64,000 nucleotides of DNA from Dehalococcoidia bacterium (GTDB taxonomy: Bacteria > Chloroflexota > Dehalococcoidia > Plut-88900), in NCBI GenBank assembly GCA_965249275.1, contig CBDFLQ010000005.1, positions 352,001 through 416,000 of the forward strand, in the 5' to 3' direction. The number at the start of each line of letters is the position of its first letter. Position 1 is the stretch's first letter. The position numbers and the translations under genes are program-made. Shown in pieces: positions 29,547 to 34,818 of the stretch. Under the pieces are notes generated by a model that saw only the letters and a program-made list of their open reading frames with translations, ran no database searches and had not been told where the DNA came from.

Positions 29547-30104
29547 ATGCTTGCCTTGAACATGACAAATGCCGACCAATCCTTTATCCGAAGGATGTAC
29601 ACCGCCGACAACCTACCTGTCTTGCAACGACTCCCCGACGCATCAGTCGACCTCATCTACCTGGACCCGCCCTTCAATTCCAACCGGGACTACGCTGCGC
29701 CTATAACGGTTAAGAACCCCAAGACCGGCAAGCGGGAAAAGCACCTGGCCGAGTTCAAGGACACTTGGACTTTCACTGATGACGACGCCGAGTGGTTATA
29801 TGTTATTAGGTCTGACTATCCCACCGTCTATGCAGTGATCGAGTCAGTCAAAACAGCCCACAGCTTCCGCATGGCGGGCTACTTGTGCATGATGGCTGTC
29901 CGGTTACTCGAAATGCAACGCATTCTCAAGCATAGCGGGGCGATATATCTACACTGCGATCCTACCGCATCTCACTATCTGAAACTGCTCATGGACACAG
30001 TATTCGGCCCGTCAAACTTCAAGGCTGACATTACTTGGAGGCGAACTAGCAGCCATAACGACGTAAGGCGGAATTACGGTGCATTGGGAGACAACTTATT
30101 CTTT
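29547..30104 (+). pseudogene. 5' fragment of a DNA methyltransferase-HNH gene interrupted by the IS1595 element
   Basis: VDLIYLDPPFNS, IYLHCDPTASHYLK; joins in frame to 33913 when the element and one TSD are removed (DNLFF|YTKSTNF...MPYSKEH). Confidence 0.9.
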
Positions 30105-30152
30105 GGGAATTATATACAATAAGGCATCAGGAATTGGCCTGATAAACCATAC

Positions 30153-30554
30153 CTATCGTGGACGACGGCCCAACGTCGAGGTTGTGTGACCTGTTGCCGT
30201 GTTATTTTCCGCCGACCACTCCCAATTTCGGGTCAACTCTTTCAGCCATTGGGCACCTTCGGCAGCATCAAAATCACTCGCACCGCAATCGGGCCAATTG
30301 GGGCGACCAGAATAGTTCATCTTCACTCCCTGCGCCGATGCAATGAACCAGACCGAATCAGCGTCTGTTCGCTCCTTAGAATTATCACGACCCCATTCAA
30401 CGTACATTGAAAAGGGAGACACATTTACATTCGTCGGCCAAACAAAATCGTTCGGAAGATGCTCCAACAGCGCCTCCAGCGCCTGCGTCATCTGATGCAT
30501 GCTGTCTACCACCCCGTACATGGACCCGCATCCCGAAGAACCTTCAATCGTCAT
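30153..30554 (-). CDS. Hypothetical protein (transposon cargo)
   Basis: 133-aa ORF with AAGGAG RBS upstream of ATG; no recognised motif. Confidence 0.6.
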   Translation of the reverse strand: MTIEGSSGCGSMYGVVDSMHQMTQALEALLEHLPNDFVWPTNVNVSPFSMYVEWGRDNSKERTDADSVWFIASAQGVKMNYSGRPNWPDCGASDFDAAEGAQWLKELTRNWEWSAENNTATGHTTSTLGRRPR

Positions 30555-30658
30555 AATACTCCTTGCTTACGAACATCTTAGCTATCCAACTGTCTCTTTT
30601 TCCCGCGTCTCGCCGTAGGTCTTTACTACTCTCTCGGGGTTTGAGAACGTGGGTTGGT

Positions 30659-30747
30659 GGGTAAGTGCCGGAACCGGCAGACGGGCTATCCTGCCAAGAT
30701 AGTGGCCCTTCGTGGTCGTAGGGGTTCGATCCCCCTCTTACCCACCA
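30659..30747 (+). tRNA. Class II tRNA with Leu-type body and GCC (Gly) anticodon
   Basis: Acceptor GGGTAAG/CTTACCC + A73 + CCA; D arm CCG-GAACCGGCAGA-CGG; anticodon arm CTATC-CTGCCAA-GATAG; long variable arm; T arm AGGGG-TTCGATC-CCCCT. Confidence 0.9.
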
Positions 30748-30757
30748 ACCCCTCTAA

Positions 30758-30985
30758 TTATCCTCGAGGCGGGAAGGGATCGTTGCCGTAGCTGTCCTTC
30801 TCCCTGATCTTCCCGTCCTTGCCATGTAAGTAATACTCGGCGTCATGGTTTCGAGCAACCTGCCGGCCGTAAGAATCTGCCTCGGCCTGGGTATCGAAGG
30901 ACTTCGTAATCCTCGATGCTCCGCCCTTCCGCACAGCCCACTTATCCCCATAGGGAACGGTGTGTTGAGTTTCTTTGCGTGCCAT
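30758..30985 (-). CDS. DUF2188-family small protein
   Basis: QHTVPYGDKWAVRKGGASRIT..FDTQAEA...LHGKDGKIREKDSYGNDPFPPRG. Confidence 0.8.
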   Translation of the reverse strand: MARKETQHTVPYGDKWAVRKGGASRITKSFDTQAEADSYGRQVARNHDAEYYLHGKDGKIREKDSYGNDPFPPRG

Positions 30986-31002
30986 TACATTACCTCTGTT
31001 AT

Positions 31003-31152
31003 CTAAGGTGCTACCTCTTTATGGTCCTTCCCGTCGTCCTGCTCCTCACCCTTCTTGGGATTCGGCCCCTTCACCACCGCCCGTAGCACATCCTCAAACG
31101 TGTCGGGTATGTGGAGCCTCTCAAACGGGCTTCTGTCTTCGCTCTTTTTCAT
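31003..31152 (-). CDS. Small hypothetical protein (LHIPDTFEDVLRAVVK type)
   Basis: 49-aa ORF co-oriented with the transposase and DUF2188 gene. Confidence 0.5.
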   Translation of the reverse strand: MKKSEDRSPFERLHIPDTFEDVLRAVVKGPNPKKGEEQDDGKDHKEVAP

Positions 31153-31322
31153 CTTATATAGATTATACCCCCACTTGCCTGAGATTGAAACACCTGTGCG
31201 GTATGGCACTATAGAAACTAAGGGGGGGTAAGTAGACGGTAGACTTTACCCTCCCTACCTGTTGATAATTCCAATATAGAAGAAAGCCTTGGAGGTTAAT
31301 CACATCTCCAAGACTCTCATCA

Positions 31323-31411
31323 GCCGTAGTGGTGGAACTGGTAGACACGCCCGGCTTGCACCCGGGTGGACTAATCGTCCGTGCAGGGTTCGAATCCCGC
31401 CTACGGCACCA
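31323..31411 (+). tRNA. Class II tRNA with Leu-type body and TGC (Ala) anticodon
   Basis: Acceptor GCCGTAG/CTACGGC + A73 + CCA; Leu-like GTGGTGGAACTGGTAGACACGC; anticodon arm CCCGG-CTTGCAC-CCGGG; variable arm GGAC-TAATC-GTCC; T arm with one bulged A; no G3:U70. Confidence 0.9.
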
Positions 31412-31501
31412 CTCTTCTTGATCCCTATTTTCATTATAAACACCTCTTCACCTTCCTGTAAATTCGTTGACGTCTACCCCCTGTGGGTGTACCTTGTCCC
31501 C

Positions 31502-31592
31502 GCTTAGGTAGTCTACCCGTACGCTGAACGTTATTTGGGCATGGGGCCGCTCATGCCCCCTTGCCAGTGAAACGGGCCAGGACTGCCTAAGC
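31502..31592 (+). ncRNA. Putative long-hairpin RNA or leader behind its own promoter
   Basis: GCTTAGGTAGTC/GACTGCCTAAGC, CCCGT/ACGGG and GGGCATG/CATGCCC nested stems; TTGACG-17nt-TACCTT at ~31468-31496. Confidence 0.45.
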
Positions 31593-31627
31593 AACGGTCA
31601 CCAGCCTAGCTGCAAGGGGGTTCCAAT

Positions 31628-32173
31628 ATGACAAAAAGCCGAATCGGGTTTTGGCTACTCATCTCTCTAATCCCTATGGGATTACTCACCTTCCTCGGAT
31701 TCATCATAAGCATTGTTCTATTCATAGGGTCCAGTAGTGATGAACCAGAGGGAGCCGAAATAGCATGTACCTTTGTCTTCTTTGCTTCGCTCTTCTACTG
31801 GTGGGGTGCTCTCTTCACCGGCATCGGATTGAAGATATTGTCCAGGCGGGAAAATCAGCAGATGTTTGCTCAAGCTCAGCGATACGCCGAGGTACACGGA
31901 TGGCAACCCATCTCGCAGTCCGCATGGAGAGCACTTAAAGCAGACAGAGCTTCCCTTGCTGTAAGTCGAAGCATTCAGGGGACGATGTATACCCTCACTA
32001 TCGCATCAGGAGTGAACACCACCACTGTCACTAACTTCGCTACACCTCTATGGGCACTACAATTTGGTGACTGGTTATGGGAGAGAACGGGGGGCGAAAA
32101 CATCACCCCAGAGACAGCACAGGCTCAACGGCAAGAATGGTCTCAGAACTTGGCAATCATTCCCACCGTCTAG
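31628..32173 (+). CDS. Hypothetical membrane protein (two N-terminal TM helices; transposon cargo)
   Basis: 181-aa ORF with two hydrophobic segments and AAGGGGG RBS. Confidence 0.7.
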   Translation: MTKSRIGFWLLISLIPMGLLTFLGFIISIVLFIGSSSDEPEGAEIACTFVFFASLFYWWGALFTGIGLKILSRRENQQMFAQAQRYAEVHGWQPISQSAWRALKADRASLAVSRSIQGTMYTLTIASGVNTTTVTNFATPLWALQFGDWLWERTGGENITPETAQAQRQEWSQNLAIIPTV

Positions 32174-32188
32174 CCATCCATACGGTAA

Positions 32189-33106
32189 CTACACATTGGT
32201 AATTAAGTCGTCGTAGGTTAGTCGCTTGCCGTGCGTTCCCTTGATCAACCTCTTCATCTGGTCAAGGGTATCCATGGGCCGGTCGTTGTGCCGCCCAGCG
32301 AACTCGGTGGCATAGCGGCTCAAGTGTTTGGGAGAGACATGGTGGTAAGTACCCATAATCCCCCGCTTGAGCATGGCCCAGTGGCTCTCGATGCTGTTGG
32401 TCGTAACCTCACCCCTAACGTACTCCCCGGTGGCATGATCAACCGCTTCGTGCTTCAAGGGAATACCCCTGTAGGAGAGGTGTCCATCACTGTGCAAGGT
32501 AGCGTCCGGTTCAACGTTGTCGAGAACGAATCCTTGGAGAATGGGTTTCTTCGTAGAGGGAAGCACCTCGGCCTTGATCTGATTAGTTGGCTTATCCAAG
32601 AGCCCCGCCACGATGGCCTTACCTTTAGGCCCTCTCCCCATGCCTCTCCACTTCCCGCCAACGTAGGTCTCATCCACCTCGACAGGCCCTCCGAAGAGTC
32701 CCTGCTCTGACTCCCACGCCTTCCGTATCCTGTGCGCCAAGTGCCAAGCTGATTTTTGGGTAATGTTGAGGTCCCGATGCAATTTCATCGAGGAAACGCC
32801 CTTGAGGTTCGTGGTCATGAGGTAAATGGCGATACCCCACTTGGAGAGAGGAAGGTTGGAACCGTGCATGACGGTGCCAGTTTTGACGGAAAATTCCAGC
32901 TGGCAGTAGGTGCAGTGTAAGGGCTTTACCTTGCGGTTGGGGCGACGGGTGATCTCCATGCCGCCACAGCGGGGGCATGATATACCGCTGGGCCAACGAG
33001 ACTCGATGAATAACTGCTCAGCCTTTTCCTCGGTGGAGAATAATTTAGTGACCTCCAGAAGGGACAAACCCTTCCGATAATGCTTACCTGGGGCGTTCCG
33101 TGCCAT
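32189..33106 (-). CDS. IS1595-family transposase
   Basis: Zn ribbon CPRC...CTYC, KGVSSMKLHRDL, VEVDETYVGG, HSDG, TNSIESHW, HLSRY; start placed at MARNAPG after a TTTACA-17nt-TATAAT promoter. Confidence 0.95.
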   Translation of the reverse strand: MARNAPGKHYRKGLSLLEVTKLFSTEEKAEQLFIESRWPSGISCPRCGGMEITRRPNRKVKPLHCTYCQLEFSVKTGTVMHGSNLPLSKWGIAIYLMTTNLKGVSSMKLHRDLNITQKSAWHLAHRIRKAWESEQGLFGGPVEVDETYVGGKWRGMGRGPKGKAIVAGLLDKPTNQIKAEVLPSTKKPILQGFVLDNVEPDATLHSDGHLSYRGIPLKHEAVDHATGEYVRGEVTTNSIESHWAMLKRGIMGTYHHVSPKHLSRYATEFAGRHNDRPMDTLDQMKRLIKGTHGKRLTYDDLITNV

Positions 33107-33220
33107 GCGCTGATCTCCTACTTCGGCTATCCTTGTTGACATAACTATTATAACACATCTCCTAATTTGTGTAAACAATGCCCAAGCAATGGAGAAAACA
33201 TGGAAAATACTGCTAAAACT

Positions 33221-33250
33221 TGGACACAATTTCAGTGGAAATAGTATCAT
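33221..33250 (+). promoter_or_regulatory. Putative sigma70 promoter for the structured-RNA array
   Basis: TGGACA-18nt-TATCAT immediately upstream of the first structured unit, divergent from the transposase promoter. Confidence 0.5.
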
Positions 33251-33256
33251 ACGGAG

Positions 33257-33410
33257 GGCAGGGTACGCAAGGAATTTATGGCACCAGGAGGCACCAATGG
33301 TCCCCTATCGGGGAATGAAACTCAGCCGGCTCCACTTTGAATAGACGTTCTGCAAAAACGTCGTGGGGTTGGCTACAAGAAGGACATTTTAGACCCTTGC
33401 ATACCCTGCC
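33257..33410 (+). ncRNA. Structured RNA unit 1, with an anticodon-like stem-loop (GCA)
   Basis: Closing stem GGCAGGGTAcGCAAGG/CCTTGCaTACCCTGCC; inner AGCCGGCTCCAC/GTGGGGTTGGCT; hairpin GACGTT-CTGCAAA-AACGTC. Confidence 0.6.
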
Positions 33411-33419
33411 AATACAACG

Positions 33420-33516
33420 TGAGAGGACATGCCTGTTGGTGCAGGCCAGAATTTGCCAAACTCTTGAGAACGTTGGCATATCCAACGTTGCGGTTCGATT
33501 CCGATCCTCTCCGCCA
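33420..33516 (+). tRNA. Irregular (9/3-like, allo-tRNA-like) tRNA with GCC anticodon and G73
   Basis: GAGAGGA/TCCTCTC acceptor core ending GCCA; D arm GCCTG-TTGGTG-CAGGC; AGAAT-TTGCCAA-ACTCT; long extra arm AACGTTGG/CCAACGTT; 3-bp T stem CGG-TTCGATT-CCG. Confidence 0.7.
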
Positions 33517-33542
33517 TCAAATAATTTGTATTATCATATAGA

Positions 33543-33660
33543 TGAGGGGAGTAGTGGTAATCCGGTAGACTCTCGATGTTCCCAACATCGGCATTGCTTA
33601 GGTAGTGTGTGTCAGACGCTGGCACAGAGTTTTTACAGAGGAACCATCTACTCTCCTTCA
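33543..33660 (+). ncRNA. tRNA-like unit with CCC anticodon loop and no canonical T arm
   Basis: TGAGGGGAGTAGTGGT/ACCATCTACTCTCCTTCA stem; Leu-like GGTAGAC; CGATG-TTCCCAA-CATCG; extra arms GCATTGC/GTAGTGT and GTGTCAG/CTGGCAC. Confidence 0.55.
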
Positions 33661-33673
33661 AGATTATACATGT

Positions 33674-33743
33674 CGCAGTCCCTGGCTGTGTGACAGGAAC
33701 GCCTTGGTACCAGCGTTGGGCTTTCAACCTGACTGCGCCTCCA
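33674..33743 (+). ncRNA. Small cloverleaf-like unit
   Basis: CGCAGTC/GACTGCG acceptor-like stem followed by CCTCCA; arms CCTG/CAGG, AACGC/GCGTT and GGG-CTTTCAA-CCT. Confidence 0.4.
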
Positions 33744-33760
33744 TATCTCCTCAATTTGAA

Positions 33761-33874
33761 TGGGAAACAAGATGGACGACCAGACATATGTCACTGTTGG
33801 AGGTTTGGCAAGACCTCCTTGATGAATTAGCGCTCGTGTTCAGCGTCGCTTCATATCTGGTCGTCCATCTCCCA
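33761..33874 (+). ncRNA. Structured RNA unit with long closing stem and TTGGCAA loop
   Basis: AGATGGACGACCAGA/TCTGGTCGTCCATCT 15-bp stem ending CCCA; inner GGAGGT-TTGGCAAG-ACCTCC. Confidence 0.5.
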
Positions 33875-33912
33875 CTGCTTGATGCCTTATTGTATATAAT
33901 TCCCTATTCTTT

Positions 33913-34800
33913 TATACGAAGAGCACTAATTTCATATTTAATACTCAATACATGCCTTACTCCAAAGAGCACATGGAGAAATTTTACTCCCACATCGATA
34001 AAGACGGCAGAAAGTACAGCACTGACAATTTGAGAAGCCCTGCACCCAGACCTAATTTGACTTACGAGTACAAGGGATACAAACCTCACCCCAATGGGTG
34101 GACAGTGTCACTTGAGAGAATGAAGCGACTCGACGCAGAGGGGCGTCTTCATTTTCCGAAAAAGAAGGACGGTCGAATCCGCATAAAGAAATTCCTTGAT
34201 GAAATGCCCGGCGTGCCTATGGGCAATATATGGGATGACATCAGACCTATCTCATCTCACTCTGAAGAACGCCTAGGCTACCCTACCCAGAAACCCTTGG
34301 CCCTGCTAGAACGCGTAATTAGGGCATCCACCAACGAGGGCGATCTAGTTTTGGACCCCTTTGCGGGTTGCGCCACGGCCTGTGTCGCAGCGGAGAAACT
34401 GAAACGGCAGTGGATCGGCATTGACGTGAGCGACCTTGCAGTCAAGCACGTCTTGGAGCGCATCCAGGATGGTTACAACCAGGGCGACTTCCCGGATATC
34501 CTTGAAACAGGGTTCCATCCCGACAAGGTGGATCACTTAGTTATCAGTGGGGAGGCACGCGCCCCGCGCTACCAAGACCGCAAGCCGGAGCTATACGTAC
34601 ACCAGAACGGCAGGTGTGCGGGCTGCCACCTCGAACTCCCGGAGCGCCTTCTGGCCGTGGACCATATTAAGCCGAGATCCAAGGGGGGCGCCGACGCTAT
34701 CGAAAACCTTCAACTCCTCTGCACTGACTGCAACTCCCGCAAAGGCAACCGGGACATGAAATACCTGTTGGAGTCCCTAAAGAGGGACGGAATAATTTAG
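33913..34800 (+). pseudogene. 3' fragment of the DNA methyltransferase with C-terminal HNH nuclease domain
   Basis: GYPTQKPLALLERVI, VLDPFAGCAT (motif I), CAGC...VDHIKPRSKGG...NLQLLCTDCNSRKG; internal ATG at 33952. Confidence 0.9.
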
Positions 34801-34818
34801 AGGCGAGGGCTTTCCAAT

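Follow-up and report, generated by a model that had tools for sequence, protein, structure and literature searches.

The window, a 64-kb stretch of DNA, contains an intact IS1595-family transposon at positions 30105-33904, present in one copy in the 2.9-Mb assembly. Direct reading and a repeat search confirm the precise bounds, perfect inverted repeats and target duplication that a sequence-only reading had proposed. The terminal inverted repeats, perfect over 25 nt and 91% identical over 33 nt, lie at 30105-30129 (GGGAATTATATACAATAAGGCATCA) and 33880-33904 (exact reverse complement of GGGAATTATATACAATAAGGCATCA). By direct reading, the 8-bp target site duplication TATTCTTT occupies 30097-30104 and, identically, 33905-33912. 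Related elements share GGGRATTATATA-type ends with this transposon. IS1595 members generate 8-bp duplications and can carry passenger genes. The transposon sits in frame inside a DNA methylase-HNH gene whose two halves are still open. The 5' half (29547..30104, plus strand; Pfam N6_N4_Mtase 8.7e-12) is an open reading frame of exactly 186 codons, ending at the first base of the transposon, and the 3' half (33913..34800, plus strand) matches N6_N4_Mtase at 1.4e-23 and HNH at 9.8e-15 over 33952-34800, position 33913 being in frame with 33952 and free of intervening stop codons by direct reading. A contig of the source sample covers 29648-34808 with zero differences. The insertion into the methylase-HNH gene is probably fairly recent.

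The transposase gene (32189..33106, minus strand; 305 aa from the ATG at 33106) encodes an N-terminal zinc ribbon and a DDE domain. Pfam (DDE_Tnp_IS1595 1.8e-30, Zn_ribbon_IS1595 3.5e-08) and NCBIfam (transpos_IS1595 3.5e-50) matches confirm the IS1595 transposase proposed from the sequence; a promoter-like site lies at 33175-33147 (minus strand), and the protein shares 50-60% identity with its counterparts in eight related elements. Four protein genes travel with it. The 133-aa ORF at 30153..30554 (minus strand) has 11 homologues at E <= 0.001 and no assigned function: Pfam, PADLOC, PHROG and NCBIfam gave zero matches, and its AlphaFold model (pLDDT 83) resembled no fold in the PDB at E <= 0.001. 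The 75-aa product of 30758..30985 (minus strand) is indeed a DUF2188 protein (PF09954, 4.8e-21) and also matches the PADLOC defence candidate PDC-S16 (5e-32) and phrog_3220 (2.9e-25). A tiny 48-aa protein (31003..31149, minus strand) is of a family characteristic of these IS1595 elements: with an iterated HMM search (E < 0.01) it was recovered from 46 of the 76 bounded ones (1.9e-13 for the window copy). The 181-aa ORF at 31628..32173 (plus strand), earlier described as a 2-TM protein, shows two hydrophobic N-terminal segments by direct reading; it has 25 homologues at E <= 0.001, itself counted, none bearing a family name, and no Pfam match. Searches with Pfam, PADLOC, PHROG, NCBIfam and fold comparison recognised no nuclease, toxin or tRNA-using enzyme in the cargo, and the transposon holds no synthetase gene. 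Together with these four genes, the passengers include two structurally intact tRNA genes of probable hybrid identity and what look like decayed tRNA remnants.

At default thresholds ARAGORN calls exactly two tRNAs in the entire window, the same CCA-ending pair with GCC and TGC anticodons that had been picked out from the sequence alone. We named them EL1 (30659..30747, plus strand) and EL2 (31323..31411, plus strand). Each is an 89-nt class II tRNA with a long extra arm, 7/5 acceptor/T geometry, a Leu-type D arm, A73 and an encoded CCA. Their D arms agree with those of all five host tRNA-Leu and not with those of host Ser or Tyr tRNAs. The anticodon of EL1, GCC, corresponds to the Gly codons GGC/GGU and that of EL2, UGC, to the Ala codons GCA/GCG/GCU; the proposed mismatch between body and anticodon holds for both. 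The acceptor, D, anticodon and T stems of EL1 are all free of mismatches (ARAGORN), and the gene can be aligned with the host tRNA-Leu set, its anticodon stem being fully paired though most of its positions differ from those of the host tRNA-Leu. Rfam gives EL1 a sub-threshold tRNA-Sec match only (27.4 bits versus a cut-off of 47) and calls EL2 a tRNA (47.2 bits). The T stem of EL2 contains two non-standard pairs or one bulged A, which could reduce folding or EF-Tu binding.

LeuRS and SerRS largely ignore the anticodon, the LeuRS identity rules being derived from work in E. coli. Since LeuRS does not read the anticodon, EL1 and EL2 are probably charged with leucine. Charging according to the anticodon, with glycine and alanine, would make them ordinary supplementary tRNAs that, like those of phages, help a new host to express the genes of the element. 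GlyRS recognises C35 and C36, both present in EL1. Furthermore, some class II-bodied tRNAs in our wider scans may be cognate, such as those with GUU (Asn), which have G73 and CCA; these lie in loci with at least four tRNA genes in one of four metagenome cases (L157) and 14 of 15 viral cases, many of them large phage-like sets. However, bacterial GlyRS prefers U73 and EL1 has A73; alanine identity is defined by a G3:U70 pair, which is absent from EL2 because it has C3-G70; and the host already encodes its own normal tRNA-Gly(GCC) and tRNA-Ala(UGC) elsewhere in the genome. We consider anticodon-matched charging very improbable.

The sequence-only reading had also reported a third, irregular tRNA with GCC and about four more closed-stem units, forming a tRNA-like RNA array. 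The third tRNA, EL3 (33421..33516, plus strand; anticodon loop UUGCCAA), appears at lowered thresholds only: ARAGORN finds it only at -ps80, Rfam scores it as tRNA-Sec at 34.6 bits against a cut-off of 47, and a class II model built here gives 17.1 bits with filters off. It has a Ser-like acceptor end (G73, CCA), a 7-bp acceptor stem, an 8-bp extra arm and a 3-bp T stem, with a 1-72 mismatch and an A-C pair in the anticodon stem. Three of the other units, all on the plus strand, fold far beyond shuffled sequences. The first, at 31502..31593 upstream of the 181-aa ORF, has a 13-bp closing stem (MFE -51.9 kcal/mol, z -6.07; 0 of 200 shuffles equally stable) and neither a tRNA-model match nor a homologue among the related loci. 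The second, at 33544..33658 (z -5.68), is the only one of these units with tRNA-like sequence: a Leu-type 5' half, whose D arm was read against the tRNA alignment, is followed by a hairpin with loop UUCCCAA and no T loop, and a terminator-like hairpin lies within it at 33608-33626. The third, at 33761..33874 (z -5.54), is closed by a 19-bp stem formed by an inverted repeat, and its inner hairpin loop holds UUGGCAA. Two other segments fold no better than shuffles: 33668-33748 (z -0.44) and 33257-33399 (z -0.88, with the 3' arm of the closing repeat left out), the latter belonging to a unit at 33257..33410 (plus strand) that an inverted repeat search shows to be closed by a 16-nt repeat, with a hairpin loop CUGCAAA and a promoter-like site at 33221-33250 (plus strand). 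The CCC, GCA and GGC loops named earlier are all present. EL3 and the 33544-33658 unit look like decayed tRNA remnants. Searches of 89 related loci and of 400 genomes from the phylum turned up no homologue of the array to the right of the transposase; it looks partly like such remnants, and so it should not be called a system.

Mismatched tRNAs recur in relatives of the element, a positive outcome of the check that the sequence-only reading had proposed. Among 75 bounded related elements, nine carry odd tRNA-like genes, with 12 tRNA-model matches in total (E <= 0.01). Their density is 0.081 per kb in cargo versus 0.017 per kb in flanks, a ~4.7-fold excess (binomial p 4e-4, on related loci that are not independent). 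Eight flank matches are also called by ARAGORN and are ordinary tRNAs; of the two further ones, that in L028 is weak and that in L074 is a truncated partial match. Among the cargo matches are Ser-type bodies whose anticodon is GAG or CCA, class I bodies of Arg-like type with GCU, and degenerate tRNA-likes in L042, L049, L066 and L073.

A search pattern for strict Leu scaffolds, with every Leu anticodon excluded, matched more than 120 metagenome stretches, a lower bound, and 65 viral contigs. Of 80 metagenome sequences extracted, 52 are well formed; the acceptor stem is good in 63, and 53 of these have A73. Compensatory changes occur at 13 of 25 stem pairs among nine related metagenomic members, and such divergence is seen also between members sharing the same mismatched CGC anticodon. 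A scaffold can also recur almost unchanged with another anticodon: outside the anticodon, only two positions distinguish L146 (GCC) from L167 (GTC). Within the class, the anticodon arm is what varies between otherwise similar scaffolds. The transposase clade of the window lies beside the tRNA in only 7 of 80 metagenome and 3 of 65 viral loci, many of these contigs being short. We place EL1 and EL2 in this class, which combines Leu-type bodies with non-Leu anticodons and is scattered yet widespread; its mobile carriers are IS1595 elements, phage-like contigs and recombinase-flanked DNA.

These data bear on whether the tRNAs are functionless hitch-hikers, picked up with passenger DNA and now decaying, with odd anticodons arising by neutral mutation. 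The clear degeneration of EL3 and the 33544-33658 unit, the degenerate tRNA-likes in relatives and the lack of homologues of the right-hand array all fit such decay. The search for close homologues of EL1 and EL2 was negative; their nearest relative is a decayed EL1-like copy in a same-genus genome, outside any recognisable IS, and in another same-genus genome a second copy of tRNA-Leu(CAA) is damaged and has CCA as its anticodon. None of 400 further genomes from the phylum contains the strict pattern, which makes the trait rare and perhaps short-lived. However, EL1 keeps all its stem pairs, including the diverged anticodon stem; to turn a Leu anticodon into GCC or UGC, two or three of its three bases must change, and the rest of the gene shows no comparable damage; class members with the same anticodon diverge through compensatory changes; and tRNA-likes are denser in cargo than in flanks. 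Decay of hitch-hikers is an unlikely account of the tRNAs.

Alternatively, the tRNA-shaped RNAs may be functional for the element or its host outside translation: they could divert tRNA-targeting nucleases or tRNA-binding proteins as decoys or sponges, have a regulatory role, provide processing signals in the cargo transcripts or donate aminoacyl groups in a non-ribosomal reaction. The leader and trailer of EL1 lengthen its acceptor helix to ~15 bp (30651-30751), the 5' leader pairing with the discriminator, CCA and trailer; this helix might impede normal end processing and, like the long stems that close the units nearby, is unlike ordinary pre-tRNAs. EL2 has its weakened T stem. Both genes lie antisense to, and between, minus-strand passenger ORFs and downstream of a good promoter-like site at 31462-31433 (minus strand). 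The UUGGCAA loop of 33761-33874 complements the EL3 anticodon loop at 7 of 7 positions and that of EL1 at 6 of 7, and the PDC-S16 match of the DUF2188 passenger is the one indirect hint at the decoy and antiviral roles that the sequence-only reading had raised. In contrast, loop complementarity is absent from eight other elements checked, and about 0.46 chance 7-mer matches are expected in 3.8 kb; the searches above recognised no nuclease, toxin or tRNA-using enzyme in the cargo; tRNA orientation relative to the transposase differs among elements; and canonical anticodon loops, A73 and CCA are needed by a translating tRNA, not by mere structure. We regard a non-translational role as unlikely.

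We favour, with a probability of roughly 0.55, the reading that EL1 and EL2 are passenger hybrid-identity tRNAs, leucylated by the host LeuRS and reading Gly and Ala codons. The anatomy, the mismatch, its recurrence and the structural conservation are observed. From these we infer that both genes would be transcribed and processed like host tRNAs, that LeuRS, blind to the anticodon, would load them with leucine, and that they would then insert Leu at GGC/GGU and GCA/GCG/GCU codons; whether for the element or for its host, any benefit belongs to the same inferred part. The tRNA-Gly and tRNA-Ala of the host would compete for these codons, and such decoding would probably be infrequent. Several observations weigh against this reading: only a weak promoter-like site lies upstream of EL2 and none upstream of EL1, no RNA run was found to contain the stretch, EL1 has its 15-bp helix and EL2 its weakened T stem, close homologues are lacking, the trait is rare among the phylum genomes searched, and few of the metagenome and viral loci have the transposase clade nearby. 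Because similar mismatches turn up repeatedly on related mobile DNA, such tRNAs may act as a mobile source of miscoding.

Passenger-carrying insertion sequences of the IS1595 family were reportedly named 'transporter IS' by Siguier, Gagnevin and Chandler in 2009. The window transposon is an intact member of this kind, with its zinc-ribbon DDE_Tnp_IS1595 transposase, short inverted repeats, 8-bp duplication and variable passengers; unlike other transporter IS, its group keeps the tiny protein in most elements. Full-text searches centred on IS1595 or insertion sequences yielded no report of tRNA genes, mismatched or otherwise, as passengers of the family.

Passages of Mukai et al. (2017, NAR, PMC5389517) describe allo-tRNAs, natural bacterial class II-like tRNAs whose anticodon and identity disagree, proposed to be missense/nonsense suppressors or non-coding RNAs. 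They occur mainly in Acidobacteria and relatives, near transposon-related genes and toxin-antitoxin systems, and polycistrons of irregular tRNA-like sequences accompany them. EL1 and EL2 resemble them in class, mismatch, transposon context and irregular neighbours. Allo-tRNAs, however, have 8/4 or 9/3 acceptor/T geometry and mostly serine identity, whereas EL1 and EL2 have 7/5 geometry, A73 and D arms of Leu type; the irregular EL3 is the sole Ser-like unit here. The tRNAProX/ProRSx pairs of Streptomycetaceae, as outlined in parts of Schuntermann et al. (2023, PMC10404621) and a review (PMC11415595), are likewise bacterial hybrid-identity tRNAs, inserting the 'wrong' amino acid at codons for Ala, Asn or Thr. 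Constitutive expression is toxic in E. coli, and beta-lactam tolerance can rise with co-expressed beta-lactamase. They differ from EL1 and EL2 in having a class I proline body and their own synthetase gene, and those parts report no mobile-element context.

Nematode nev-tRNAs are class II tRNAs derived from tRNA-Leu with Gly or Ile anticodons; according to Hamashima et al. (2012, PMC3333845), they are charged in vitro with leucine only and decode GGG as Leu in vitro, a precedent for our favoured reading. Hamashima et al. (2015, PMC4300185) report no detectable in vivo mistranslation by conserved nev-tRNAs, which counts against our favoured reading and for a non-translational role. Unlike EL1 and EL2, nev-tRNAs are eukaryotic, chromosomal, lineage-specific and vertically conserved, and not transposon-borne. 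They share with EL1 a Leu-type class II body with a Gly anticodon and, by analogy, are the closest model of how EL1 may act.

On its sequence features, the element at 30105-33904 is an ordinary member of the IS1595 family. Its inverted ends are perfect over 25 nt (GGGAATTATATACAATAAGGCATCA and its reverse complement), and an 8-bp target-site duplication, TATTCTTT, borders it on the left and on the right. The 305-aa DDE transposase (32189-33106, minus strand) matches PF12762 (1.8e-30), the zinc ribbon PF12760 (3.5e-08) and NF033547, NCBIfam transpos_IS1595 (3.5e-50), so that the bounded IS1595 transposon proposed in the sequence-only reading is borne out. The zinc ribbon is N-terminal, as IS1595 membership demands, and D145, D207, N237, E240 and K247 are invariant in nine aligned transposases. 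The 2.9-Mb, 7-contig assembly has a single copy of the element. It is inserted in an N6/N4 DNA methylase-HNH gene, whose 5' half stops exactly at a codon boundary (30104) and whose 3' half (33913) continues without a stop in the frame of the downstream ORF. Both halves remain open, as would be expected if the insertion is fairly recent.

Metagenome contigs give further views of this site. In the source sample, one contig spans 29648-34808 with 0 differences from the window. In two runs of this sample, contigs at 35-52x depth join 29531 directly to 34819, pointing to more abundant relatives without the whole methylase-HNH gene. Some contigs fuse the outermost 13-17 nt of the two ends directly to each other (30117/33892, 30121/33888), one of them with a 15-nt palindrome between the ends; these fusions could stem from a miniature derivative, from different elements that share these ends, or from misassembly at the inverted repeat. 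One run from a different study contains a 214-nt contig that agrees at every position with 30539-30752, which covers the tRNA gene EL1 and its leader, indicating that the same or a very close element is present in a second sample. Among the runs listed as containing the element, none is an RNA run.

In the 64-kb window ARAGORN calls two tRNAs and no more, both of them within the element: EL1 (30659-30747, plus strand) and EL2 (31323-31411, plus strand). Each is 89 nt long, with a long extra arm, a 3-bp D stem and A73 followed by an encoded CCA. We aligned them with the host's five Leu, four Ser and one Tyr tRNAs, and the D arms of both follow the tRNA-Leu pattern, not that of Ser or Tyr; plain pairwise identity to host tRNAs is too crude for EL2, where it gives a Leu/Gly tie. 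The main stems of EL1 are all free of mismatches, and the T stem of EL2 has two non-standard pairs or, alternatively, one bulged A. Neither tRNA has a leucine anticodon (NAG or YAA): EL1 carries GCC and EL2 carries UGC, and so we class them as Leu-type bodies only, not as tRNA-Leu genes. The body-anticodon mismatch that had been noticed in two CCA-ending tRNAs is therefore real.

One rival reading is charging with the amino acid that the anticodon names, glycine for EL1 and alanine for EL2. The alanine identity mark is G3:U70, and the bacterial glycine marks are U73 with G1-C72 and C2-G71. EL2 has C3-G70, and EL1 has A73 and G2-C71, which makes cognate charging very improbable. The host has its own tRNA-Gly(GCC) and tRNA-Ala(UGC) elsewhere in the genome, both ordinary and 75-76 nt long.

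The reading that we prefer, at a probability of roughly 0.55, is that the passenger tRNAs are leucylated. Bacterial LeuRS relies on A73 and the architecture of the D arm. The anticodon is not read by the Leu, Ala, Ser and Pyl synthetases, according to PMC11028032. Because LeuRS ignores the anticodon and relies on features that both tRNAs have, EL1 and EL2, if expressed, should be leucylated, and the charged tRNAs would then read GGY and GCN codons as Leu. Another rival is that these are RNAs with a role outside translation. It is a doubtful alternative: canonical anticodon loops, A73 and CCA speak for translation, and what favours the rival includes the acceptor helix of EL1, which leader and trailer lengthen to ~15 bp so that the CCA is buried inside.

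We examined whether related elements also carry such tRNAs. Relatives of the transposase occur in 18 of 41 related genomes, the window's own counted, and a species-genome collection yielded 466 confirmed matches. The best 80 of these 466 come from metagenome-assembled genomes labelled Dehalococcoidia or Chloroflexota, Acidobacteriota, Binatia, Paracoccaceae, Gammaproteobacteria and others. Similar GGGRATTATATA-type ends bound 75 of 89 related elements, and the duplication matches at 7 or 8 of 8 positions in nearly all. The bounded elements measure 1342-5434 bp, indicating a variable passenger load. Related loci were searched with two covariance models made from the host's own tRNAs (E <= 0.01). 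The non-transposase cargo gave 12 matches in nine elements over 147.5 kb (0.081 per kb), versus 10 matches over 580 kb of flanks (0.017 per kb). The cargo is thus enriched (binomial p 4e-4, with related loci that are not independent of one another). Eight of the 10 flank matches are ordinary tRNAs by ARAGORN, one of the remaining two being a cut partial and the other weak. The 12 cargo matches are not ordinary tRNAs, and so the recurrence that the sequence-only reading had set as a check is indeed seen. Ser-type bodies appear with GAG in L020 and with CCA in L087; Arg-like class I bodies carry GCU in L027; and the cargo of L076 holds a class I body with a GCU anticodon, nearest to host tRNA-Met, and a tRNA bearing C33. 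At L199 a Leu-type tRNA with a UUA anticodon adjoins an IS1595 transposase.

Around IS copies in a same-genus genome we also observed a ~37-nt palindromic repeat (L017 4059-4110, 4825-4876 and 10354-10390; L022 10308-10342 and 10507-10541), which looks like a dispersed repeat of REP or MITE type.

The protein passengers contain no synthetase domain in any ORF of the element. The DUF2188 passenger proposed earlier obtained its family match and also matches the PADLOC defence candidate PDC-S16. ORF133 (133 aa, 30153-30554, minus strand) has 11 homologues and a confident predicted structure. It has no family match in Pfam, PADLOC, PHROG or NCBIfam, its Atlas scores are below 0.8, and its model finds no fold match in the PDB at E <= 0.001. 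ORF181 (181 aa, 31628-32173, plus strand) has two hydrophobic segments; its 25 homologues, itself counted, all lack a name. A 48-aa protein (31003-31149, minus strand) belongs to a family present in 46 of 76 bounded elements of this IS1595 group. Its members, L096, L101 and L042 for example, are basic and roughly 40-80 aa long, have an RGRP-like motif followed by a conserved helix, and usually lie near one element end; the family looks like an accessory factor of this group.

Decay is visible in other parts of the cargo. The irregular unit EL3 (33421-33516, plus strand) has an acceptor end of the host tRNA-Ser type (G73, CCA), an 8-bp extra arm and the loop UUGCCAA. It also has a mismatch at 1-72, an A-C pair in the anticodon stem and a T stem of only 3 bp, and it falls below all curated thresholds. 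The unit at 33544-33658 (plus strand) begins like a Leu-type tRNA, with a D arm and then a hairpin with the loop UUCCCAA, and lacks a T loop. Together with 31502-31593 and 33761-33874 it folds far better than shuffled sequences (z -5.5 to -6.1). Two further units fold no better than shuffles, so that the proposed tRNA-like array stands only in part: the irregular third tRNA and three strongly folding units are there, and the region to the right of the transposase (33107-33904) has no homologue among the 89 related loci, nor in 400 genomes of the phylum except for one marginal 46-nt match. Because homologues are lacking in these sets, we read the region as probable decayed tRNA copies plus hairpins, not as a demonstrated array. 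The cargo DNA on the left gave a single 53-nt match to the related loci. Several further tRNA-like units in the cargo of related elements are degenerate as well. These observations would suit a decaying hitch-hiker, meaning tRNA copies carried along and eroding; with the mismatch-free stems of EL1 on the opposite side, that explanation seems unlikely.

The loop of a hairpin at 33805 is exactly complementary to the EL3 loop and can also pair with EL1. None of eight other elements examined has a same-strand hairpin complementary to an anticodon loop, and a single 7-mer match is expected by chance ~0.46 times. We therefore dropped such pairing as a general mechanism.

We next turn to the wider class. 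The scan pattern combined a Leu-type D loop, a 7-nt anticodon loop, a long extra arm and a T loop, and required that the middle base of the anticodon not be A, which excludes every Leu anticodon. More than 120 metagenome stretches match. Among the 80 metagenome loci listed, the commonest anticodons are UGG (9), CGC (7), GCC (6), GUC (6), UGA (6, at least three of which are ordinary tRNA-Leu(GAG) in the wrong register), UGC (5) and UUA (4). In a set of 80 sequences, made up of 78 metagenomic ones (two cut ones removed), EL1 and EL2, 52 form six or more of the seven acceptor pairs together with four or more of the five anticodon-stem pairs. Of the 63 whose acceptor stem is good, 53 have A73. Among nine related members, 13 of 25 stem pairs show compensatory changes, also between members sharing the mismatched anticodon CGC; an 85-row alignment, in which ordinary and odd tRNAs are mixed, was set aside for this count. 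The structure of the class is thus conserved. Different anticodons, or entire anticodon arms, occur on near-identical scaffolds.

Viral contigs gave 65 pattern matches, 15 of which are class II-bodied tRNAs with GUU; the others include Gly, Pro and stop anticodons. Six tRNAs from the metagenome scan were checked, four with GUU and two with other anticodons, and all show G73; of the 15 GUU tRNAs on viral contigs, 14 sit among at least four other tRNA genes. The discriminator base and these tRNA-rich settings suggest that the GUU tRNAs may be cognate. Phage-like arrays of 11-26 tRNA genes include a class II GUU (Asn) tRNA (L157 2975-5996; viral L279, L282, L283 and L291), and the GUU members examined in the metagenome scan, L157 included, have G73 and CCA. 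This may be a genuine long-armed tRNA-Asn.

The transposase clade of the element adjoins the tRNA in 7 of 80 metagenome loci and in 3 of 65 viral loci; the metagenome contigs mostly measure only 1-4 kb. Neighbours in 18 longer loci include a serine recombinase, a tyrosine integrase and two IS1-like transposases, and are otherwise housekeeping or unknown genes. The strict pattern has 0 matches in 400 other genomes of the phylum. A looser pattern applied to 40 relatives returned only a decayed EL1-like copy and a damaged tRNA-Leu(CAA) duplicate. The former (L266 5987-6072, same-genus genome G006) resembles EL1 at the 3' end and in the extra and T arms. Its anticodon arm reads UGG (Pro), its acceptor stem is broken, and no IS1595 transposase lies within 6 kb. 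The latter (L267 5116-6070, same-genus genome G007) is a near-full copy ~680 bp downstream of a normal tRNA-Phe/tRNA-Leu(CAA) pair, outside any IS, with the anticodon now CCA and the 5' acceptor strand damaged. The scans indicate that the trait is rare in individual genomes, recurs across environments and extends beyond IS1595.

We tentatively raise a broader possibility, which we think rather improbable as it stands: that 'programmable' Leu-type (some Ser- or Arg-type) tRNAs circulate on IS1595 transporter elements and also on some phages and other mobile DNA, with the anticodon arm exchanged or mutated and the scaffold recognised by LeuRS kept. Such tRNAs would form a transferable missense and nonsense suppressor toolkit that imposes codon-specific Leu misreading on recipient cells, and might serve as a stress or bet-hedging device, a weapon between elements or a stage on the way to codon reassignment. 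Few natural tRNAs uncouple the anticodon from its amino acid, and those that do are central to understanding why the genetic code is stable and how it can change. Those known from bacteria, allo-tRNAs and tRNAProX, are lineage-bound curiosities. If Leu-type tRNAs with Gly, Ala, Pro, Asp or stop anticodons do ride transposons and phages across phyla, mistranslation or suppression would become a transferable trait, and elements with mismatched tRNAs would be a ready source of orthogonal-looking tRNA scaffolds.

In the literature searched, with supplements (including the figures of Mukai et al.) beyond its scope, we found no description of IS1595-borne or Leu-type mismatched bacterial tRNAs. Among the systems compared, tRNA-Sec was rejected, as RF01852 scores EL1 at 27.4 and EL3 at 34.6 bits, under the gathering threshold of 47. 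Likewise, the tRNAProX/ProRSx system does not fit: EL1 and EL2 are class II, not proline-type class I, and the passengers encode neither ProRSx nor any other synthetase domain. For allo-tRNAs, Mukai 2017 (PMC5389517) describes a 12-bp acceptor branch split 8/4 or 9/3. The geometry of our tRNAs differs: EL1 splits 7/5 and has standard pairs throughout; EL2, also 7/5, has two non-standard pairs in the T stem and fails a 9/3 reading at two pairs; and in EL3 the acceptor is 7 bp long and the T stem 3 bp. EL1 and EL2 resemble allo-tRNAs, which are associated with mobile or toxin-antitoxin loci, in having anticodons unfit for their identity and in their mobile setting, with both genes inside a transposon. 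The nearest worked example for EL1 and EL2 is the nev-tRNAs of nematodes. PMC4300185 reports no detectable mistranslation by nev-tRNAs in vivo, which tempers any claim of real miscoding by EL1 and EL2; according to PMC3333845, nev-tRNAs are charged with Leu only and decode GGG as Leu in vitro.
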